Assembly: GCA_018650085.1 (NCBI GenBank)
Contig: JABIGQ010000038.1
Span: 4,388 to 68,387, forward strand
DNA from: Candidatus Magasanikiibacteriota bacterium
GTDB taxonomy: Bacteria; Patescibacteriota; Patescibacteriia; Magasanikbacterales; UBA922
Length of the DNA: 64,000 bases
Reading direction: 5' to 3'
Shown here one piece after another: positions 6,006-23,141 of the stretch (the first letter of the stretch is position 1; every line of letters starts with the position of its first letter). A program made the translations under genes and the position numbers. Under the pieces are notes generated by a model. That model was not told the origin of the DNA. It did no database searches and saw only the letters and a list, made by a program, of their open reading frames with translations.

Positions 6006-8078
6006 TTATCTTACATACTCATATACCCATACTTCATCTGCGCCAAATGTCCACCATGCATTGGCTTCTTTTTTTGCTTCATCTCGCAGGTATGCTGCTG
6101 GTGACCAGTAGCTGGTGTGGATGAAATATGCTTTATTTACGCCTGCATAATCCATGGCTTGAATCATCCATGCTCTTTTTGGTTCATCATATACCATGTG
6201 TGCAAAGTAGCTGTACATTGGGGCGCCTGTGGGGATAGAATAGAAGTATTGTTCTCCATGTGCTACATTGTGATATTTTAGAAATCCAAATTCTTTCATG
6301 GCTGTTACACCGACCATCTGATTTGTTAATACTATGTAGTCTGGAGTATTATCATTTCTTTCATGAATAAAATGTACGGCTTCTTTATCTGCGTTACGGA
6401 TAGATATCCCTGTATAATATGACAGAGCATTTCTGGTAGGGTAGGTAAAAAACCAAGAGATAGTTAATAATATGACAAGAGAGAAAATAGAAATATATTG
6501 GATAATATGTTTTTGTTTTTTTATGTAGTGATATAAATATATCATTGTACTGGCAAATGCTGGAAGTAAAAATAAATATGCCATCATAAGAAGGCGTTTT
6601 GCATAGTTACCGTATTCATAGTTCGCCATATTTGGGAAACGTATGATAGTAGCAATGATTGCTCCAGAAAAAAAGAGCCCAAAAGATGTCGCAAGAAAAA
6701 ACAAGGATCTCTTTTCTTTTTTTGTATAGAAAAGTCCAACCCCCATTATTGTTAATATGATATATGGGATAAGTGCTTTATAATGATAGAGTAATTGTAA
6801 ATGTCTTGGGGCATTATCAAATAATTCCCAATGTGGTTTTTTGAAAAATGAGATAAAAACATCCAGTTCTTCCCACGGCATAATAACACGAAGTTCGCTA
6901 TGCATATATAGGATAAGCCCCAGTGGCAATGCAATGGCAAGTAGGATGCTGTAGAGAGGGTAGAGGTATGTTTTTGTCTGGTTTTTAAAACGCCACGCTA
7001 GGATAATAATTGCGAGTGGAATACCAGCAATGGCATGAGTAATAAGTGTCATGATGGTAAATAGTCCTATGAGTAGGTCATCTTGTTTTCTATGTGGTTT
7101 ATCCCATATATGCCAGATCCATAATGCAACGAGTGTAGAAAAAAGAAGGGTGAGGTTAAATGGGGTGGTAAAAATAAACCAAGAAAGTGGTACAAGTGTT
7201 AAAAGAATTGTTGCCCAGAGTGCTTTATGTTTGTATCCATATGTGTGCCAGAGAAAGAGAGGAATGTATATACTTGCAAGCAGTGGGACAAGTAGGGTGT
7301 CTATGCTAATAATAGATATATGGCTGAGTGCAGAAATAAATAATACAAGCATGTATTGTCCTAGATAATATGGATTTTTTGGTGAGATCATGCCATGATC
7401 TCTAATATAGGTTTCACTTGCTTGGTGAATCACAGGATCATAGCCATAGCCATTTTTAAATAATATAATGGCAACGGACAGTATGAGTATATAATGAATG
7501 ATGCTTCCAAGGAAAAGAAGCATGGGGTGGGTTTTTTGTTTTAATGCAATAAATAGATAAAGTATGGTAGTTATTGCAAATACGGTAAAGAATTTGGGCC
7601 CTACGAGTGTCCATGGGGAATAGAGTGTTCCTCCATATTGTTTTGTATATAATACGCCTAGGAGAAGGAGACTTCCGAGTATTGGTATTATACCCCAGAT
7701 GAGTTTTTTTAAGTCTAATGTATTGCGTTTTATCTTAGCTTTAGTATTTGATTTTTTATGTATGAGATATATGGATAGTATTGAAATAAGGCATATTATT
7801 CCACTTGCCAAAAAATTACTCCACCCAAAAAACCAGTAAACAGGGGTTGCAATGATTGGGATAGAGAGATATAGTAATAGTGATCCAAAGAGGAATTGAG
7901 GGATTGCAGATTGTTTTGGGATCCATGATTTCCCCCAGATATAACCGTGTGTGAGTGTAAATAGGGAGAATATGAGTATTCCTGCTATTTTTGAGATATT
8001 TGTGTATATACTAAAAAGCGCAAGGATTGTCACAAGTGTGAAAGTGGTGATATACTTGATATGTATGGAGTTTTTCAT
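6006..8078 (-). CDS. Large polytopic membrane protein, more than 12 TM helices plus a ~130-aa C-terminal soluble domain. Possibly a GT-C-type glycosyltransferase; speculative.
   Basis: 690-aa ORF, almost entirely hydrophobic helices with an aromatic-rich C-terminal domain. Divergent from a similar gene at 8254. Adjacent to a GT4 gene. Confidence 0.55.
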   Translation of the reverse strand: MKNSIHIKYITTFTLVTILALFSIYTNISKIAGILIFSLFTLTHGYIWGKSWIPKQSAIPQFLFGSLLLYLSIPIIATPVYWFFGWSNFLASGIICLISILSIYLIHKKSNTKAKIKRNTLDLKKLIWGIIPILGSLLLLGVLYTKQYGGTLYSPWTLVGPKFFTVFAITTILYLFIALKQKTHPMLLFLGSIIHYILILSVAIILFKNGYGYDPVIHQASETYIRDHGMISPKNPYYLGQYMLVLFISALSHISIISIDTLLVPLLASIYIPLFLWHTYGYKHKALWATILLTLVPLSWFIFTTPFNLTLLFSTLVALWIWHIWDKPHRKQDDLLIGLFTIMTLITHAIAGIPLAIIILAWRFKNQTKTYLYPLYSILLAIALPLGLILYMHSELRVIMPWEELDVFISFFKKPHWELFDNAPRHLQLLYHYKALIPYIILTIMGVGLFYTKKEKRSLFFLATSFGLFFSGAIIATIIRFPNMANYEYGNYAKRLLMMAYLFLLPAFASTMIYLYHYIKKQKHIIQYISIFSLVILLTISWFFTYPTRNALSYYTGISIRNADKEAVHFIHERNDNTPDYIVLTNQMVGVTAMKEFGFLKYHNVAHGEQYFYSIPTGAPMYSYFAHMVYDEPKRAWMIQAMDYAGVNKAYFIHTSYWSPAAYLRDEAKKEANAWWTFGADEVWVYEYVR

Positions 8079-8253: not shown

Positions 8254-10479
8254 ATGAAAAAACAAATAGTACAATCGAGTATTGCTTTTATATTTTTGTT
8301 AGGGATATTGGGGAATATGTATATTTGGCAGATGCCTTTTGTTGGCACGTTGTTATTTTTTTGTTTTTCTGCAACTATTGCGTGGATGTGGCAGCCGGGT
8401 GTTGCAAAAATATTTCATGTGAAGGTGCATAGTGCTATGACGCATTTGCTTGGGTGGAGTGTCGTATTATTTGGGTATGCGGTATTGTCTAGTGTTTCTG
8501 TAATGATTCATAGGCTGACGATGCATCATGTTTCAGGTATATTGTTGTGTAGTGTATTATTGCCTTTTATTTTTTCTTTTTTATATCATAAAGTAAAGCG
8601 GAAACGGGATAAAGGTGTTCGGACGTTGGTAAGTACAGAGTCTTGTAGTCGTCATGAAATATTTGGTGGAAGTTCGTGGTTTATGGTGGTCTATCTGTTA
8701 TTATGGGCTGCTGGTGTGGCATTGCTTGTTGGATCTACCAGTGATGTGGTCTTGCGTTCTCCATGGCAGGCAATTCATCATGTGTTCCCATATGTATTTT
8801 TCTTTGCCAGTATTGTATTTGGAATTATATTATTTTCTAGGTATAAAGTTCCTGTTATTTTATTTACTCTTATTTTACATACGTTTTTATTACATTTGTT
8901 TGTGCCATTATCCCATGTATTGCCATGGGGAGGAGATGTGTGGCGGCATATTGCTATGGAAGAGCGAGTGGTGGCTTCTGAGTATATACATCCCGTGCTT
9001 ATAGGAGATACTGTAGAGATGATCCCAATGTTTGGTGTGCAAATTCCACGATTGTTTTCTCATCCCCAAAAGCTTGGATATAGTATGCTGTGGGGTATGA
9101 CTTCTTTTATTCAATATATCACAGGGCTATCTTTTGAAATAATACATATTTGTTTGGTGCCATTGTTATTTTCTTTTATGGTGCCTGTACTTTTATTTCG
9201 TTTAGGCGCGGTACTTTTTGGGACTACCAGAAGGGGATTATGGTTGGCAGCTGCTTCTCTTATATTATATCCTATCCAAGCTGCGGGTTCTCTTACTGTT
9301 CCTGTAAGCCTTGGGTTTGTATTTTTCTTATTTGTCCTTACTATTTGGGCAACGTATTTACGTTATGGTTATAGATATATGCGGTGGATGTGGTGGGTGA
9401 CTACGGCATTACTTTTTTTTGGGTATTCTCTTTATGCAGTACTTGGATTATTACTTCTTGTATATACATATGCTTATCGTTATATAAAAGGTATCTCATC
9501 TCTGTGGATAAAAAGAAGTGTGCTTGGGATAGGAATGGGTTTGTCTATCTTTGTTATTCCTGTATTTGAATGGTTAGCGGGGACGTGGCAGATGGGTGGT
9601 GTTGATATCTTAAGAGAAATAAAACAAATACTCGGACAATGGAGTGGATTGTATTATATTTCTCAAATTCGTGATCACGATATTTCAAGTGGAAATATGT
9701 TGATAAATCAAACACCTCTATATGCATATGTGGAGACAGTATTTACGGTATGGCGTTGGTGGATATTGGGAGTATTGTCTGGTGTGTATGCCAGCGTATT
9801 TGTGGCTATGTGGTTTATTATAAAAGATAAAATAGATGATAGATGGCGTATATTATTGTGGTTTGGAATTTCACTTTTTGGTGGGTATCTCATAGGGTGG
9901 CATCTTGGTGGTGGAGATAGGGCTATTATTCGCCGTCTGGATTTGGTGTTGGGCTTATTGATTGTATTATTTGCTTGTTATGGATGGGTAAATATAATGG
10001 ATATGTTATCTATTCGTCTCTCTCGTGTGTGGTATAAAGTTGTGGTAATGGTGAGTGTATTATTTGTTATATTGTTAGGGGTGCAAACATATATAAGTGG
10101 GCCAGATGAATATGTATTACATAAGGATAGTTATGATGCTGCGCGTATTGTGGCTACAGAATTGGAATGGGAAAATCCGCAATGTATTATTGCAGACACA
10201 TGGGAATTACTTGCGTTAGAGCGATTTACTCATGCGTATATTATAGGTGGTGGATTTCCTATGGTACATGGATACGGTCAGCCAGAGCGTGTGCGTCTAT
10301 ATCATCAGTTAACAAGTGATTTTGTAGGAGATGAATTGGAAGTGGCGCATGAGCTTACTGGTGATGATAGTTGTGTGTTTATAACATCTGTGAATAATGT
10401 AGACGTTGAGGGTGTTACTGCATTGTTTGGGAGTGATCCAGAGCGGGTTGGTGGAGTATTTATTTGGAGAGAGGATTAA
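8254..10479 (+). CDS. Large polytopic membrane protein with the same architecture as the 6006..8078 gene. Possibly a paralogous GT-C-like transferase; speculative.
   Basis: 741-aa ORF with many TM helices and a C-terminal soluble domain whose layout parallels the divergent neighbour ('ADTWELLALERF..YIIGGG' vs 'DYIVLTNQMVGVTAMKEFG'). Confidence 0.55.
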   Translation: MKKQIVQSSIAFIFLLGILGNMYIWQMPFVGTLLFFCFSATIAWMWQPGVAKIFHVKVHSAMTHLLGWSVVLFGYAVLSSVSVMIHRLTMHHVSGILLCSVLLPFIFSFLYHKVKRKRDKGVRTLVSTESCSRHEIFGGSSWFMVVYLLLWAAGVALLVGSTSDVVLRSPWQAIHHVFPYVFFFASIVFGIILFSRYKVPVILFTLILHTFLLHLFVPLSHVLPWGGDVWRHIAMEERVVASEYIHPVLIGDTVEMIPMFGVQIPRLFSHPQKLGYSMLWGMTSFIQYITGLSFEIIHICLVPLLFSFMVPVLLFRLGAVLFGTTRRGLWLAAASLILYPIQAAGSLTVPVSLGFVFFLFVLTIWATYLRYGYRYMRWMWWVTTALLFFGYSLYAVLGLLLLVYTYAYRYIKGISSLWIKRSVLGIGMGLSIFVIPVFEWLAGTWQMGGVDILREIKQILGQWSGLYYISQIRDHDISSGNMLINQTPLYAYVETVFTVWRWWILGVLSGVYASVFVAMWFIIKDKIDDRWRILLWFGISLFGGYLIGWHLGGGDRAIIRRLDLVLGLLIVLFACYGWVNIMDMLSIRLSRVWYKVVVMVSVLFVILLGVQTYISGPDEYVLHKDSYDAARIVATELEWENPQCIIADTWELLALERFTHAYIIGGGFPMVHGYGQPERVRLYHQLTSDFVGDELEVAHELTGDDSCVFITSVNNVDVEGVTALFGSDPERVGGVFIWRED

Positions 10480-16019: not shown

Positions 16020-18179
16020 TTATGTGGAAAACGAAATATCTATACTATAGACCTTTTTATCATCTAAAAGATATAGTATTTCTTTCTCTAAATCAATAGT
16101 AAACGATTGCGGAGATTCCCACATATCGCTTTGGTATTGGCGGATTAATTTGCCATCTTTCGTAATTTCTACAATTCGTTTTTCTCCACGATCAAGGATA
16201 TAAATATGATCATGTTCATATCGAACCCAGAGTTCTACCGGTTCTGCGAGTACTGGCTTTATGCTATCTGTATGAAATGATACAGGTTTTCCTCTTTCAA
16301 ATACGAGGACTTCTCCTGTTTGTTTTAAAATATAAATACGCCCATCTATCCCAATATCAATAGCTCCTGTAATATCTACATCTGTGGCTAACCATGCACT
16401 CCCTCTATCATATCCGCTCACAGTAGGATTATGTTTAAAGATTTGATTATGAATAGGATCTAGAGTATAAAGTCGTTTATTATATGTGGCAATAGCAGTA
16501 ATAGTTGTTTCTTCTGTTGGGTAAGAAATATCTTGTGATTTCACTCCTTTTGTCTCTACATCCCAAGATACAATGCTATTTTGATTGGTAACAAAAATAA
16601 TGTTTTCTTCTTCTTTTGGGACATAACTATGAATCATTGCAGGGACACTATCATAGTGTTTTGTTTCTATAGATTTAGTAGATGGATTTAGTAATAAAAC
16701 ATCTTTACTGTCATCTGTATAGAGAAATAATCCTCCATCTGCATAAGCAATTCTCGTAAGAGAACCGTAAGATCCAAGATCTTCAATAAGCATTGGATTT
16801 GCATCTTCTATCTTTTGGAGTTTTCGCTGAAGGGTTTTTGTTTTTTCTTCTACATTTGTACGGATGTCATTTATTTCTGCTCCTTCTGGAAGGCCTTCGA
16901 TAAGTGTTTGTATTTCTTCAAGCAATCGGAGTGCCTTTGATTCATTCCCATAGAGCATGCTTGCCTCTGCTGTTTCATATCGCTCTTGGATATCTGTGAG
17001 TGTTTGCTCTTGTATTGTTGCGATTTGTGCTTGTTCTTTTTTATATTTTACTCCCCATATACTCACACTAAATATAATGATGAGCCCCAGTGCGCTAACA
17101 AATAATATTTTACTTAGAAGAGAAAGACTGGTGATATATTGTTTTTTTCTGTAAATACTTTGTTTGTATTGGTCAAGAATGGTCTTTCTTTGATTCCCAT
17201 GATTTGTAGTAATAAGAAAGAGCACAAGTAATTGTTTCCAAATACCAATAACAATATGTTTTAAAAGCAAGGCAAACTGTACCAGCATCATCACCAATAT
17301 TTTTCCTACCATAATTAATATACGATTCCACAATGGTTCATCGGATTTTTTTTGGGATGGGCGTGGGCGATAATTTGTTTCTGAACGTGAAGTAGATTTT
17401 TTACTTTCTTGTGCAGTTATTTTTTGTTTATTTGAGGGTATGTTTTTTTTATGTGTTTCTGGAATAATAAGTGGAAGTTCTTTTTCTTTAAATGGACGTT
17501 TCTTTTTTGGTTGGTGGATAAGTAGCCCGCCAAAAGACCTGTCGCTGCGTTGGCTGTCTAGTGTTTTTTGGACATAGGCTATGGCACTTGCTGGTGGGCG
17601 AGAGGTAAAAATATGTTGGAGACGTCCTTCTGGGAATACTTGTGCTATTCCAGGAGTTCCTATAAATAATAAATCATCATCAGCCAAGCTGCCTTCTGTC
17701 ACACGAGAAAAAAGTTTTTCTGTATGATTCGTTTTTTTCCCTTCAAGCAAATTCATGATATTCCATGATTTTTCTTCATGGTACATAAGAACGGATTGTG
17801 GGGTTCCATGTGCTGCAAAATAGAGTGTATTGTCTTCTATGACTCCTACAAAACAATCAATCTCCCCACCATCTTTCCCTAAAACATGATGTCCTCTATG
17901 ATTTATAAATTCTAGTGCGCATTCAAAGGCGTGCTTTTTATCATCATTATTTGATTCATAATATCCAGATTCTAGGTCATCTATCATGCGTTGAACATGT
18001 TCTATTTGGTCTACAGTGCCTTCTTGTATTTCACAGATAGCAAAAAATGAGCCCTTCCCTTCTTCCTCGGGGGCGTTTTCTGTAATATGCAAAAGGACAT
18101 GCGACTGTGCTAGTCGTTTTCCTTCTGAAAAAAATTCATATAGTTCAAACGGTTCTCTCATAAATTTTGACTTCATCAT
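16020..18179 (-). CDS. Hypothetical bitopic membrane protein: N-terminal cytoplasmic domain, two TM helices, a coiled-coil, then a C-terminal beta-propeller-like repeat domain.
   Basis: 719-aa ORF. TM region 'ILIMVGKILVMMLVQFALLL' and 'LLSKILFVSALGLIIIFSVSIWGV'. Heptad-rich segment. C-terminal repeats with recurring 'YTLD/YILD/LYLLD' strands. Confidence 0.55.
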   Translation of the reverse strand: MMKSKFMREPFELYEFFSEGKRLAQSHVLLHITENAPEEEGKGSFFAICEIQEGTVDQIEHVQRMIDDLESGYYESNNDDKKHAFECALEFINHRGHHVLGKDGGEIDCFVGVIEDNTLYFAAHGTPQSVLMYHEEKSWNIMNLLEGKKTNHTEKLFSRVTEGSLADDDLLFIGTPGIAQVFPEGRLQHIFTSRPPASAIAYVQKTLDSQRSDRSFGGLLIHQPKKKRPFKEKELPLIIPETHKKNIPSNKQKITAQESKKSTSRSETNYRPRPSQKKSDEPLWNRILIMVGKILVMMLVQFALLLKHIVIGIWKQLLVLFLITTNHGNQRKTILDQYKQSIYRKKQYITSLSLLSKILFVSALGLIIIFSVSIWGVKYKKEQAQIATIQEQTLTDIQERYETAEASMLYGNESKALRLLEEIQTLIEGLPEGAEINDIRTNVEEKTKTLQRKLQKIEDANPMLIEDLGSYGSLTRIAYADGGLFLYTDDSKDVLLLNPSTKSIETKHYDSVPAMIHSYVPKEEENIIFVTNQNSIVSWDVETKGVKSQDISYPTEETTITAIATYNKRLYTLDPIHNQIFKHNPTVSGYDRGSAWLATDVDITGAIDIGIDGRIYILKQTGEVLVFERGKPVSFHTDSIKPVLAEPVELWVRYEHDHIYILDRGEKRIVEITKDGKLIRQYQSDMWESPQSFTIDLEKEILYLLDDKKVYSIDISFST

Positions 18180-19325: not shown

Positions 19326-19916
19326 ATGTCTCGAGAGATTGTTTTTGATATTGAAACCATTGGTGATATAAAGAATTTATCAACAATGAAAGTAACCGTG
19401 GTGTCTATTTATGAATATGAATCAGATTCATATAGATCATTTGAAGAACATGAATTAAAAGATTTGTGGCCAATACTTGAGAAAGCAGAACGGATCATTG
19501 GGTATAATAGTGAGCATTTTGATGTGCCAATTTTAAATAGATATTATGCTGGCGATTTGACAATCATCCCACATTTAGATTTGTTAAAAGTGATAAAAGA
19601 ATCTTGTGGAAAAAGGTTTAAATTAGATGATGTAGCACAAGCAACTTTGCAGATGAAAAAAAGTGCAGATGGATTAATTGCAATGGAATGGTTTAAAAAT
19701 GGAGAAATTCAGAAAGTAAAAGATTATTGTGAGCAAGATGTGAAAGTCACAAAAGAGGTGTATGATCATGGAAAGAAAAATAGTATGATTTACTATCCTA
19801 CTATTCAGGGAGATATTATGCCTATTTCTGTAAATTTCGCATCATTTCCAGTAGCAGAAGGTGCTTCGCAGTCTGGTGCGGTTGGTGGTGGAATTAATTT
19901 GACTTTGCCGATATAG
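19326..19916 (+). CDS. DEDD-family 3'-5' exonuclease (DnaQ-like fold).
   Basis: Exo I 'VFDIETIG', Exo II 'IGYNSEHFDVPIL', Exo III 'YCEQDVKVTKEVYDHG' (DEDD-h). Confidence 0.65.
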   Translation: MSREIVFDIETIGDIKNLSTMKVTVVSIYEYESDSYRSFEEHELKDLWPILEKAERIIGYNSEHFDVPILNRYYAGDLTIIPHLDLLKVIKESCGKRFKLDDVAQATLQMKKSADGLIAMEWFKNGEIQKVKDYCEQDVKVTKEVYDHGKKNSMIYYPTIQGDIMPISVNFASFPVAEGASQSGAVGGGINLTLPI

Positions 19917-19923
19917 AATCGTT

Positions 19924-21261
19924 TTGCTGGCGTCAACAAAATGGTTTCTTGAAAAAATAAATAGTTACATTATGCCCATAACATTTTCAAAAAAAGCACA
20001 ACTTGCAATAGATAAGGTTCAAGAGACCAATGATAATATCTTTGTCACAGGAAAAGCGGGGACTGGAAAGTCTACGCTTTTAGAATATATAAGAAACTAT
20101 ACATCAAAAAAAATAATCCTTCTTGCGCCTACAGGGATATCTGCTATAAATATAAATGGAGATACTATCCATTCATTTTTTAAACTTAAACCAGGGTTTG
20201 AAAAGGCAGAGGCTGAGAAAATGAGAATAGATGAAAAAAAAGAAAAGAAATTTAAGCGAATAGAAACTATTGCTATAGATGAGATTTCTATGGTAAGGGC
20301 AGATCTGCTCGATGCTATAGATATAGTACTTCGGCGTACCAGAAAAAATGATCAACCATTTGGAGGAGTACAGATGGTGTTTTTTGGGGATTTATATCAG
20401 CTTCCTCCTGTAGTCACTAGCGTGGATAGAGAAAAGTTTTTTTCTGAATATACCTTACCTTATTTTTTTGGGGCAGAAGTTTTTAAAACGCGGTTTGATT
20501 TATTTTCTACAAAATTTGAATTAGAGATAATTGAACTGACAGAAATGTATAGACAAAAAGACATGGATTTTATTCATGTTCTAAATGCTGTACGAAATAA
20601 TTCTGTAGATCATAATCATCTAAATACATTGAACACTCGATTTTTCCCAGATTTCACGCCAGAAGATAAGGATAATTATATTTATCTCATGACCACAAAT
20701 GCGAGTGCACGGAAGGTGAATGATGAAAAGTTAGCGCAACTTCCAGAGGAAGAAAGGATGTATTTGTCAGAAAAAACAGGAGATATTGCAAAAAATCTTC
20801 ACCCAAATGATGAAATGATAACTATAAAAGTAGGAGCGCAGGTGATGTTTATTTGTAATGATGCAGAGAGAAAATGGGTAAATGGAACCATAGGGAAAGT
20901 GATTGAAATAAATGGGGATCGTGTCTTGGTAGAAAAAACAAATGGGGATATGGTAGATGTAAAAAAGCATACGTGGGAGATATCTCGTTATACATTTGAT
21001 AAAGGACAGTTTGAACGAGAGATTATAGGAAGTTTTACTCAGATGCCAATGAAACTTGCTTGGGCAATCACTATACATAAAAGTCAGGGGAAAACCTTTG
21101 ATAAGGTTATAATTGATTTGGGACGAGGAAGTTTTGCACATGGACAAACGTATGTAGCGTTAAGTAGATGTACGACGCTTGAGGGAGTTATCTTAAAAAA
21201 ACGTATGTATAAATCAAGTATTATTATGGATACGAGAATAAGGAATTTTGAGGTGAAATAA
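19924..21261 (+). CDS. PIF1-like SF1B DNA helicase (RecD/Dda-like).
   Basis: Walker A 'GKAGTGKSTLL', 'LLAPTGISAININGDTIHSFF', 'IAIDEISMV', 'FGDLYQLPPV', C-terminal 'MPMKLAWAITIHKSQGKTFDKV...ALSRC'. Typical bacterial Pif1 size. The start could be the ATG at 19969. Confidence 0.75.
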   Translation: MLASTKWFLEKINSYIMPITFSKKAQLAIDKVQETNDNIFVTGKAGTGKSTLLEYIRNYTSKKIILLAPTGISAININGDTIHSFFKLKPGFEKAEAEKMRIDEKKEKKFKRIETIAIDEISMVRADLLDAIDIVLRRTRKNDQPFGGVQMVFFGDLYQLPPVVTSVDREKFFSEYTLPYFFGAEVFKTRFDLFSTKFELEIIELTEMYRQKDMDFIHVLNAVRNNSVDHNHLNTLNTRFFPDFTPEDKDNYIYLMTTNASARKVNDEKLAQLPEEERMYLSEKTGDIAKNLHPNDEMITIKVGAQVMFICNDAERKWVNGTIGKVIEINGDRVLVEKTNGDMVDVKKHTWEISRYTFDKGQFEREIIGSFTQMPMKLAWAITIHKSQGKTFDKVIIDLGRGSFAHGQTYVALSRCTTLEGVILKKRMYKSSIIMDTRIRNFEVK

Positions 21262-21308
21262 AAATACTTATGGTGATGTATTTTTTGGTTTAGTAAAAAT
21301 TAGTAATT

Positions 21309-21782
21309 ATGTCACTTGATATTGATAATTTTGAAGAAGTAAGAGTAAAAGCAGAAGATTTTTATAAAGGTTTGTCTCAAGTGTATTGTCCTTATTTAAA
21401 AGATAAAATTTCTTTTAATAGTTCAGGATTACGACATATAAAATTTAAAAGGCAGAGACAATCTCGTTCTCGGCAGGATCAGTATATGCGTTTTAAATTA
21501 TTACATTTAGCGCCTAAGGTAATAAGTGCAAGTGCTACATTACAAGGAATTTTAGAAAGTAATAATTTTGAACGTGTAAGAGTAAATAGTAAAACTCAAA
21601 ATATAATGAAATTTGTTACGTATTATGAGTTTATTGCAGTGATTGATTCTATTCGTGTAAAGGTAATATTAAAACAAATTGAAGATGGTGAATGTTTTTT
21701 TTGGAGTATTATCCCATATTGGGGTGTTGATAAGGAACATAGAAGAAAAAAGTTGCATAGTGGGTATCCTGCGAACGATTAA
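21309..21782 (+). CDS. Hypothetical protein, 157 aa.
   Basis: ORF co-directional with and tightly spaced to the helicase. No motif recognised. Confidence 0.4.
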   Translation: MSLDIDNFEEVRVKAEDFYKGLSQVYCPYLKDKISFNSSGLRHIKFKRQRQSRSRQDQYMRFKLLHLAPKVISASATLQGILESNNFERVRVNSKTQNIMKFVTYYEFIAVIDSIRVKVILKQIEDGECFFWSIIPYWGVDKEHRRKKLHSGYPAND

Positions 21783-21917
21783 AAACAAAAAATCTACCAG
21801 ATGGTAGATACTTTGTAGGTATTTGGTTACAGCTTATGTATTAGCCGTGAGAGGGCGAACCCTCCAAACACCTATAAAAATAATAGCATAAAAATATATA
21901 TTTGTCAATAAAATATT

Positions 21918-23141
21918 ATGTCAGATCAACATATCGTATGTCCTAGTTGCAGTGTGAGTATTCCACTTTCAGAAGCACTGAGAAAACAAGTGACAGAACA
22001 ATTAGAAGTGAATTTTAGAAAAAAAGTGGAAAAGCAAATGGAAGAGGTAGCACTTCAGAAAAAAGAATTAGAAAAACAAAAACGAGAAGTAGAAAAATCT
22101 GTAGAAGTAAGATTACAAGCAGAAAAAGAAAAGATGTGGCTTGTAGCGCAAGAAAAAGCAAAGGAGAAAATGAATATTGAACTAAAAGATTTAGAAAAAA
22201 TAAATCAAGAAAAAGAAGTGAAGATACGAGAGATGCAAGAAAAGGAATTGGAATTGCGGAAACAAAAGCGTGAAATAGAAGAAAAAGAAAAAAGTCTTGT
22301 ACTAGAAATGGAAAGAAAGTTAGATGAAGAAAGAGAAAAAGTGTCAAAGCAAGTAAAAGAAGAAGCATTTGTAGAAAGCAGGCTAAAGATAGCAGAAAAA
22401 GACAAGCAAATGGAGCAAATGCGTTCAACGATTGAAGAGTTAAAAAGAAAAAGTGAACAAGGCTCCATGCAAATACAAGGGGATGTGCAAGAAAATGATT
22501 TGAAAGTATTATTACAGCAACATTTCCCAATGGATACTATTGATGATGTTCCTACTGGAATTAGAGGTGCGGATCTCGTACAAACAGTTCATGCACAATT
22601 TGGGAAAAAAACGGGAATTATTCTCTGGGAATCAAAAAACACAAAGGCATGGAGTAGTGACTGGATAAAAAAATTAAAAGATGATCAAGCAGCGGTAAAA
22701 GCAGATGTGTGTATTTTAGTTTCTCAATCTTTGCCAAGTGATATTCAAACGTTTGGATTAAAAAATGGCGTGTGGATTTGTCATTATAAATTTGCATTTG
22801 CGCTGGCATCTACGCTTCGTCTTCATTTAGAAGAATTATCAAAGGCAAAGCAGTCTCTGGTGGGGAAGGATCAGAAGATGGAGTATTTGTATGATTATTT
22901 GTGTGGAAATGAATTTAGAAATAAAATAGAAAATATAGTATCTGCTTTTTCTAGTATGAAGGAAGGATTAGAGACAGAAAAGCGTTCTATGCAGCGTATT
23001 TGGAGTAAAAGGGAAAAAGAAATAGAGCGTGTAATTTTAAACACGTCTGGTATGTATGGGGATCTGCAGGGGATTGTGGGGGCGAGTTTACCTACTGTGG
23101 ATGCATTGGAATTACCTGGTGGAGAAGAGGAAGAAGATTAA
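21918..23141 (+). CDS. DUF2130-like protein: N-terminal CxxC, a long K/E coiled-coil, and a C-terminal PD-(D/E)xK-like (restriction-endonuclease fold) domain.
   Basis: 'CPSCS' at the N-terminus. ~180 aa of heptad-rich E/K repeat. C-terminal 'GADLVQ...GIILWESKNTKAWSSDWIKKL' resembles the D...E-x-K pattern of DUF2130 proteins. Assignment from memory of the family architecture. Confidence 0.5.
   Translation: MSDQHIVCPSCSVSIPLSEALRKQVTEQLEVNFRKKVEKQMEEVALQKKELEKQKREVEKSVEVRLQAEKEKMWLVAQEKAKEKMNIELKDLEKINQEKEVKIREMQEKELELRKQKREIEEKEKSLVLEMERKLDEEREKVSKQVKEEAFVESRLKIAEKDKQMEQMRSTIEELKRKSEQGSMQIQGDVQENDLKVLLQQHFPMDTIDDVPTGIRGADLVQTVHAQFGKKTGIILWESKNTKAWSSDWIKKLKDDQAAVKADVCILVSQSLPSDIQTFGLKNGVWICHYKFAFALASTLRLHLEELSKAKQSLVGKDQKMEYLYDYLCGNEFRNKIENIVSAFSSMKEGLETEKRSMQRIWSKREKEIERVILNTSGMYGDLQGIVGASLPTVDALELPGGEEEED

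Follow-up and report, generated by a model that had tools for sequence, protein, structure and literature searches.

Organisation of the four-gene row

Four open reading frames lie on the + strand between positions 19326 and 23141 of the window, the 64-kb stretch of DNA analysed here, encoding in order an exonuclease (EXO, 19326-19916, 196 aa), a PIF1 helicase (19972-21261, 429 aa), a protein of 157 aa termed UNK157 (21309-21782) and a DUF2130 protein (21918-23141, 407 aa). All four were verified at these coordinates and match the deposited gene calls of the Ca. Magasanikbacteria MAG GCA_018654465.1. The initial annotation had described a tightly spaced + strand row with only 7 bp separating the exonuclease from the helicase. 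The co-directional arrangement holds, but the 7-bp gap does not, since PIF1 starts at ATG 19972 rather than at TTG 19924, which is merely a mechanical ORF start, making the real gap 55 bp. Both the deposited 429-aa protein (P0001, 100% identical) and all orthologues begin at this ATG. PIF1 and UNK157 are separated by 47 bp, with a further 135 bp between UNK157 and DUF2130, this last spacer (21783-21917, without strand) being the largest gap in the row and containing a perfect hairpin with a 7-bp stem at 21792-21809.

Scanning the sequence between the four genes revealed no convincing + strand terminator, a terminator-like site scoring on the minus strand only, while a promoter scan was uninformative, yielding 25 promoter-like sites vs 25.3 in shuffled sequences. 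Rfam gave no match in the region. As the four genes all run in one direction with only 47-135 bp separating neighbours, their co-transcription in this organism is conceivable from the sequence. The exonuclease, PIF1 and DUF2130 genes are backbone-like in GC and GC3, with UNK157 a compositional outlier of anomalously low GC3.

The exonuclease and the Pif1 helicase

The exonuclease is a member of the PF13482/PF10108 'PolB-exo-like' family, matching PF13482 RNase_H_2 (1.2e-12) and PF10108 PolB-exo-like (2.2e-10), both above the Pfam threshold, together with phrog_403, 'DNA polymerase exonuclease subunit' (1.3e-15). Across 17 sequences the invariant residues are D8/E10 in Exo I (DxE), N61/D66 in Exo II (NxxxFD) and Y134-x3-D138 in Exo III. 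The enzyme had initially been assigned to the DEDD-h type; because Exo III reads Y134-C-E-Q-D138, also invariant in the 17 sequences, instead of H-x4-D, it is in fact a DEDD-y exonuclease, differing in this respect from the DnaQ/epsilon-type DEDD-h enzymes and sharing all three Exo motifs (D-E-D-D plus Y-x3-D) with the stand-alone DEDD-y exonucleases of PF13482/PF10108, phage phrog_403 included. A sequence search of the PDB detected no solved structural relative. Orthologues are present across Magasanikbacteria at 66-86% identity with a constant length of ~195 aa, and the gene belongs to the conserved backbone of this group. The protein is likely to be a Mg2+-dependent DEDD-y 3'-5' DNA exonuclease, trimming or proofreading 3' ends.

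The identification of the second gene as a PIF1-type SF1B helicase was confirmed by a match to PF05970 (1.2e-32), by the alignment of residues 3-427 to solved bacterial Pif1 proteins in a phmmer search of the PDB (8BNS, 9.7e-120; BaPif1 5FHD, 1.2e-87; ToPif1 6S3E, 3e-67) and by the SF1B motifs, with Walker A GKAGTGKST, the Walker B segment IDEISMVR and the Pif1 signature PFGGVQ...GDxxQLPPV invariant in 16 orthologues. The homology to characterised Pif1 helicases is full-length and spans both RecA-like domains. Compared with the bacterial structures (5FHD, 6S3E and the thermophile 8BNS/8BNV) the window protein aligns end to end, has the same length of ~430 aa and possesses all SF1B motifs, without architectural difference or fused accessory domain. 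It is a canonical compact bacterial Pif1, simply the CPR orthologue, with identities across CPR of 57-80%. Judged by homology it is likely to act as a 5'-3' ssDNA translocase clearing G-quadruplexes and other fork obstacles, like characterised bacterial Pif1.

The DUF2130 protein

The DUF2130 assignment, originally made on the basis of an N-terminal CxxC, a coiled coil of ~180 aa and a C-terminal PD-(D/E)xK-like domain, is borne out by a match to PF09903 at 3e-67 (227 bits vs a cut-off of 26.7) covering model positions 3-253 of 255. DUF2130 (PF09903, COG4487) is a functionally uncharacterised family within PD-(D/E)XK (Steczkiewicz et al., 2012, PMC3424549), and the window protein has no feature that distinguishes it from other members, its identity across CPR being 51-79%. 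At the N-terminus C8-x-x-C11 is invariant in 31 homologues. The C-terminal domain has a restriction-endonuclease-like fold with E...D...ExK, comprising both the PD-(D/E)xK core fold and the catalytic set E192, D219 (GADL) and E238-S-K240, which is invariant in the homologues, and with these residues intact the objection that the domain might lack catalytic residues falls. The intervening coiled coil was upheld in part: residues 18-185 do form a long charged helical region, free of proline and 68% E/K/Q/R/L, but the heptad signal is weak and the region could instead be an ER/K single helix.

Searching the PDB with the DUF2130 sequence gave nothing but a spurious coiled-coil match to MOM1 (E 0.047). 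A 'recombination-limiting' protein, RmuC (PF02646), likewise combines an N-terminal coiled coil with a C-terminal PD-(D/E)xK domain. The likeness is confined to this overall architecture, a PD-(D/E)xK domain preceded by an N-terminal region that is long and helical, with RmuC carrying an N-terminal membrane anchor where DUF2130 carries CxxC. Homology between the two was rejected, hhalign profile comparison with E. coli RmuC giving a probability of 0.2%, with no PF02646 match up to E 10 and no Pfam cross-match. DUF2130 is likely to be a metal-dependent DNA endonuclease mounted on a long helical stalk, with the CxxC at the stalk tip possibly binding Zn and potentially mediating dimerisation, and it probably functions in recombination or repair.

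UNK157 and its LPD3-like family

The description of the 157-aa product as an unknown protein stands, its sole Pfam signal being a sub-threshold match to LPD3 (PF18798; E 0.003, 18.1 bits vs a 27-bit cut-off). Within the UNK157 family the LPD3 model is matched by 14 of 43 members over nearly the full length of the model (best E 1.7e-6), and the window copy is a divergent stand-alone LPD3-like protein. A PDB sequence search with UNK157 gave no match, no significant structural similarity to BECR/RelE-fold RNase toxins was found, and searches of phage records and PHROG showed the family to be absent from both. LPD3 occurs in polyvalent proteins of phages and conjugative elements (Iyer et al., 2017, PMC5512222), from which the UNK157 family differs in being stand-alone, chromosomal and often located within type I R-M operons.

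The link to R-M systems emerged from 80 UNK157-family loci collected in a metagenome scan with a tight 8-sequence alignment. R-M genes were present in 19/80 of these vs 1/80 control loci (Fisher p = 1.3e-5; CPR metagenomes), with HsdM ending 20-52 bp upstream of the family gene in 11 loci. In many the gene directly follows hsdM and precedes hsdS, and the neighbours, sometimes AbiTii or Fic, also include NucS-like genes. A PIF1-like gene was present in 2/80, in the opposite order, and DUF2130 or EXO in 0/80. UNK157 is probably a recently acquired accessory gene, and its product is likely to be an accessory protein like those encoded within R-M operons. PrrC is an anticodon nuclease embedded in the type I R-M EcoprrI locus, and in lying inside type I R-M operons the UNK157 family resembles it; UNK157 shares neither sequence nor significant fold similarity with PrrC/RloC, however, and the window copy has no R-M genes nearby. 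By analogy the LPD3-like family might comprise effectors or regulators working with Patescibacteria type I R-M, perhaps as a divergent BECR-like RNase that is PrrC-like in logic, a speculative proposal that is rather unlikely to be correct.

Neighbourhoods of the four families in other genomes

Conservation of the gene row was assessed in a genome scan using a PIF1 alignment, which gave, among the matches listed, 80 PIF1 loci of 43-50% identity in species-representative genomes from many phyla, and in close relatives, of which ~10 neighbourhoods were sampled. The 80 distant loci and four close PIF1 loci (61-74% identity) constitute a sample independent of the sister genome. EXO or UNK157 was found in none of the 80 distant loci listed and DUF2130 in one (L075), located 6 kb away. 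The four close loci have unrelated neighbours, with no EXO, UNK157 or DUF2130 in the available sequence, L084 ending just after PIF1 and being uninformative downstream.

In two other Magasanikbacteria (L092 and the P0275 contig) EXO directly abuts FNR(-)-Rrf2-NifS. Unrelated genes surround the DUF2130 orthologues of 59-65% identity, none of these genes being related to UNK157, and no PIF1 was found near three other DUF2130 orthologues. Other nucleic-acid enzymes do lie near DUF2130 orthologues elsewhere: L089 has topoisomerase I there, and L175 has RadC and a ResIII protein. Small ORFs beside DUF2130 or PIF1 in other loci were considered as cryptic UNK157 relatives and rejected (best hmmsearch E 0.25).

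The sister genome is collinear with the window on both flanks, yet both the EXO-PIF1 and the PIF1-DUF2130 junctions are broken, the former by ~13 kb of other genes (RecQ, TrmB paralogues, FAD enzyme and others) and the latter, within 2 kb, by two unrelated ORFs; PIF1 and DUF2130 have stayed this close although indels lie between them and to both sides. Each of the four families is strongly conserved as a single gene whose neighbours vary. The same gene order was not found across several independent lineages, the sister alone keeping PIF1 near DUF2130, without an adjacent exonuclease.

Defence and mobile element content

A search of PADLOC-DB 2.0 gave no system-specific match, in agreement with the earlier view that the combination is not a named anti-phage system; there were only generic helicase (partial PDC-S68, RecD-like) and weak DEDDh matches, with none for UNK157 and only a noise-level LmuB match for DUF2130 (E 0.003). 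Genes for R-M, Abi, integrases or any further defence function are absent from the 64-kb window, which is otherwise occupied by housekeeping genes (DnaE, TsaD/B, Fe-S assembly, GlnA, ClpB, GluRS, BipA, DnaG, sigma-70 and LigA). Searches for att-like flanking repeats revealed only short AT-rich chance repeats, and neither tRNA targets nor phage structural genes were found. PIF1 relatives are present in 546 phage records, the best phage match being only 44% identical, and the window proteins match phrog_325 (PIF1) and phrog_403 (EXO). Among the matches listed, members of the PIF1 clade are scattered patchily across phyla. In phage records DUF2130 is limited to seven Helicobacter heilmannii prophage-type records, which are unannotated prophage predictions without functional context.

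Origin of the gene arrangement

The four genes are, with good confidence, independently conserved genes for nucleic-acid enzymes that have become adjacent through lineage-specific rearrangement in a compact CPR chromosome and do not form a system. Weighing against this are the closely spaced, co-directional genes, the PIF1-DUF2130 proximity kept in the sister and the nucleic-acid enzymes near DUF2130 in L089 and L175. The initial annotation had suggested an operon-like module for defence, phage replication or repair, a proposal that fails because related genomes do not share the synteny and every one of the four genes is an orthologue well conserved in its lineage. EXO belongs to a conserved backbone block of TsaD, a 719-aa protein, HTH, TsaB and EXO, and elsewhere in Magasanikbacteria it directly adjoins FNR, which is convergent, and the Fe-S operon Rrf2-NifS-NifU. 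In the common ancestor of the sister and the window genome, PIF1 and DUF2130 would have arrived in the EXO-FNR junction, which then presumably gained and lost genes, the sister coming to hold the ~13 kb between EXO and PIF1 and the two ORFs between PIF1 and DUF2130, and the window genome its low-GC3 LPD3-like gene.

A lineage-restricted helicase-nuclease module is an unlikely alternative to this rearrangement. As in helicase-nuclease pairs of repair or defence, Pif1 would unwind or translocate and DUF2130 would cut, with the small gene between them swappable and EXO a bystander. Such a module is consistent with PIF1 and DUF2130 staying close in the sister despite the different genes between them and the ~13 kb inserted upstream, with the order of ResIII helicase-like gene, small ORF and DUF2130 in L175, with the 6-kb spacing in L075 and with the intact nuclease residues of DUF2130. 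The PIF1-DUF2130 arrangement is, however, common to the sister only, where common descent explains the closeness, since unrelated genes for Fe-S and tRNA modification are collinear as well. Moreover, DUF2130 is missing from the available sequence at the four other close PIF1 orthologues (L084 being uninformative downstream) and occurs at only one of the 80 distant loci listed, PIF1 is not near three other DUF2130 orthologues, and the intervening small ORFs are mutually unrelated.

It is more doubtful still that the EXO-FNR junction serves as a small hotspot for defence or accessory genes, with UNK157 and perhaps DUF2130 acting as anti-phage or anti-plasmid effectors. The content of the slot does differ among close relatives, UNK157 is anomalous in GC3 and members of its family lie within R-M or Abi operons (R-M genes in 19/80 loci vs 1/80), and LPD3 is known from phage and conjugative-element polyvalent proteins (PMC5512222). 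Against this, the window lacks any known defence gene, R-M, Abi and integrase genes included, no PADLOC model matches UNK157 or DUF2130 above noise, PIF1 and DUF2130 are backbone-like in composition and the extra genes of the sister (RecQ, TrmB, FAD enzyme) are not defence genes. It is highly improbable that the three inserted genes are what remains of the replication module of a phage or another mobile element. Phages do commonly carry Pif1/Dda-like helicases and PolB-exo-like exonucleases, as the 546 PIF1 records and the two phrog matches attest, and the listed PIF1 clade is patchy across phyla, but the best phage PIF1 is only 44% identical vs 57-80% for CPR orthologues, DUF2130 is restricted to the seven H. 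heilmannii records, UNK157 is in none, and integrase, structural genes, tRNA targets and flanking repeats are all lacking.

The row is thus an ordinary juxtaposition of members of known families rather than a new system, and recording it as lineage-specific prevents a false defence-system call. For DUF2130, a widespread family, the intact PD-(D/E)xK, long charged helix and invariant CxxC provide a clean structural and catalytic assignment, and nuclease assays are therefore straightforward. Should UNK157 prove to be an R-M effector, the window copy would point to the PIF1-DUF2130 junction as a small site at which defence or accessory genes insert; in a weaker variant of this unlikely reading, Pif1 and the DUF2130 nuclease would cooperate as a clade-restricted helicase-nuclease pair. 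In CPR metagenomes the LPD3-like family is significantly associated with operons of type I R-M, which offers a testable lead on the LPD3 domain of polyvalent proteins.

Gene content and coordinates

The four + strand ORFs of the initial annotation are present, comprising an exonuclease gene (EXO, 19326-19916), a helicase gene (PIF1, ending at 21261), the gene for a 157-aa protein (UNK157, 21309-21782) and that for a 407-aa protein (DUF2130, 21918-23141). The window containing them is chromosomal and comes from a Candidatus Magasanikbacteria (Patescibacteria/CPR) MAG, with identical proteins and gene order in GCA_018654465.1 and two ENA assemblies. Pfam searches on each protein supported the domain-level interpretation, with EXO matching PF13482 RNase_H_2 (1.2e-12) and PF10108 PolB-exo-like (2.2e-10), the helicase PF05970 PIF1 (1.2e-32) and the DUF2130 protein PF09903 DUF2130 (3e-67), and with UNK157 giving as its sole match a sub-threshold one to LPD3 (PF18798; E 0.003). 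The original observation is confirmed with minor corrections. The 7 bp reported between EXO and the helicase was wrong, TTG 19924 being a mechanical ORF start only; the deposited helicase protein (429 aa) and all orthologues start at ATG 19972, such that the intergenic gaps in the row are 75, 55, 47 and 135 bp. Promoter-like sites in the row did not exceed chance level, and judged from the sequence the four genes could conceivably be co-transcribed in this organism. A perfect 7-bp-stem hairpin (ATCTACC-AGAT-GGTAGAT) is located at 21792-21809, just 3′ of the UNK157 stop, with a T-run following on the minus strand only, where no gene ends. Elsewhere in the window ORFs of 719, 690 and 741 aa (16020-18179 (-), 6006-8078 (-) and 8254-10479 (+)) are without Pfam match, the 719-aa ORF, beside TsaD, being 53% identical and syntenic in the sister genome GCA_018823045.1.

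The encoded enzymes

EXO had been classed as DEDD-h, an assignment overturned by alignment of 17 orthologues in which D8/E10, N61/D66 and Y134-x3-D138 are invariant, a DEDD-y signature of the PolA/PolB/WRN-exo type. It is a stand-alone DEDD-y enzyme with 66-86% identity across Magasanikbacteria, its best phage-family match being phrog_403 ‘DNA polymerase exonuclease subunit’ (1.3e-15). The PIF1 product is a typical bacterial Pif1 of compact, canonical form, residues 3-427 aligning with solved bacterial Pif1 structures (8BNS, 1e-119; BaPif1 5FHD, 1e-87; ToPif1 6S3E, 3e-67), with every SF1B motif and the Pif1 signature invariant and identities of 57-80% across CPR. The Pif1 clade was also observed at 43-50% identity in far-removed lineages, namely DPANN archaea, Omnitrophota, Saprospiraceae, Dehalococcoidia, Nitrospirota and deltaproteobacteria (loci L004-L083), a patchy distribution suggesting that the helicase by itself has been transferred horizontally several times.

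The DUF2130 protein is 51-79% identical across CPR. The coiled coil of ~180 aa proposed for it stands as a long charged helical region, residues 18-185 (window 21969-22472) lacking Pro, having a single Gly and being 68% E/K/Q/R/L. Heptad autocorrelation is almost nil, and the segment may be an ER/K single helix spacer rather than a classical coiled coil. This region varies in length among homologues (whole proteins 370-508 aa) and, with the invariant N-terminal CxxC, recalls a zinc-hook-on-a-stalk design.

Conservation of the neighbourhood

Synteny was checked in neighbourhoods anchored separately on PIF1, EXO, DUF2130 and UNK157, with only ~10 sampled from close relatives. The PIF1-anchored set held 80 loci among the matches listed, from species-representative genomes of many phyla and DPANN archaea (43-50% identity); EXO and UNK157 were absent from all 80 of these listed matches and DUF2130 was present in one, 6 kb off with membrane-protein genes between. 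At four closer PIF1 orthologue loci (74, 69, 65 and 61% identity) the neighbours were unrelated, the 74% locus (L084), apparently that of the sister genome, stopping just past PIF1 and giving nothing on the downstream side. In GCA_001782825.1 (L092) and the P0275 contig, EXO is directly followed by a convergent FNR gene and then Rrf2-NifS, the same EXO-FNR junction holding PIF1-UNK157-DUF2130 in the window. The contexts of DUF2130 orthologues at 61, 59 and 65% identity were likewise unrelated, and no small ORF beside them was related to UNK157 or to one another. Other nucleic-acid enzymes are found close to some DUF2130 orthologues, with RadC and a 663-aa ResIII+Sigma70_r4 protein in L175 (2831-7218) and a divergent topoisomerase I in L089 (211-6865), where HsdM/HsdS are ~5 kb off, but there is no recurring partner. 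Among 80 metagenomic UNK157-family loci a PIF1-like gene was found in two, downstream and hence in the opposite order, and DUF2130 and EXO in none. At L103 (8001-10006) both the homologue of UNK157 and the PIF1-like gene beside it look fragmented under translation table 11, which may reflect a pseudogene or an alternative genetic code, for instance the UGA recoding of some CPR.

By a test set beforehand, a module would be refuted if synteny were missing and each gene were a conserved single orthologue; the neighbours vary, and each gene is strongly conserved. The proposal of a four-gene defence, phage-replication or repair operon is thus not supported, synteny being lacking in related genomes and each gene being a conserved orthologue.

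UNK157 and restriction-modification operons

UNK157 is the compositional outlier among 14 genes (GC 0.291; GC3 0.158 versus 0.22-0.34 in the others). HsdM, HsdS or a Mod-like methylase was found in 19/80 UNK157-family loci (585 kb) compared with 1/80 PIF1-anchored controls (1,159 kb; Fisher p = 1.3e-5). At 11 loci HsdM ends 20-52 bp upstream of the UNK157-family gene on the same strand, and HsdS is downstream in seven. Genes of this UNK157/LPD3-like family often lie inside type I R-M operons (hsdM-UNK-...-hsdS; noted at L125, L133, L137, L152, L159, L161, L165, L166, L171 and L172), sometimes with AbiTii (HsdM-UNK-AbiTii-HsdS, L133), Fic (Fic-HsdM-UNK, L152) or a NucS-like gene (NucS-like-HsdM-UNK, L161). 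No R-M partner of UNK157 was found in the window. Polyvalent proteins of phage and conjugative elements carry LPD3, a domain of unknown function (PMC5512222).

Origin of the gene row

The sister genome is the only sampled genome keeping PIF1 near DUF2130, and a clade-restricted Pif1-DUF2130 helicase-nuclease pair would account for this. Its left flank (TsaD, a 705-aa protein, HTH, TsaB, EXO) and right flank (DUF2130, FNR, Rrf2, NifS, NifU, on to GlnA) are collinear with the window, and the proximity is attributed to shared descent, which explains the shared Fe-S genes equally well, leaving such a pair unlikely. Two unrelated ORFs (150 and 321 aa) replace UNK157 in the sister, and ~13 kb separates EXO from PIF1; its genes are RecQ, several paralogues of TrmB, three unknown genes, one Rce1-like gene and an FAD enzyme. 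Across L091 (6673-8820) and L088 (1-3924) of this genome at least four TrmB-family HTH paralogues (~265 aa each) lie in tandem, together with RecQ, the Rce1-like gene and the FAD enzyme, and none of these occurs in the 64-kb window.

A hotspot for accessory or defence genes, in keeping with the R-M embedding of the UNK157 family, is slightly less probable still if small in extent, and a mobile-element remnant is very improbable. Several results speak against a defence or mobile module. The PADLOC check for a defence system returned only generic partial helicase matches and a weak DEDDh match, with noise-level matches for DUF2130 and none for UNK157. Near the cluster the window showed neither an integrase nor an R-M gene, and neither att-like repeats nor non-coding RNAs; EXO, PIF1 and DUF2130 have backbone-like GC and GC3, promoter-like sites are at chance level as noted, and the rest of the window consists of housekeeping genes (DnaE, ClpB, GluRS, BipA, DnaG, sigma-70, LigA). 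Among phage records DUF2130 occurred in only seven, of Helicobacter heilmannii prophage type, PIF1 relatives reached at most 44% identity, and UNK157 matched neither a phage record nor a PHROG.

Most probably the row consists of nucleic-acid-enzyme genes, each conserved independently, that have come to lie side by side at a variable junction in a compact CPR chromosome. Given its composition, the R-M embedding of its family and the LPD3 context, UNK157 is plausible as a gene with an accessory or defence-associated role that came in between two residents of the junction.
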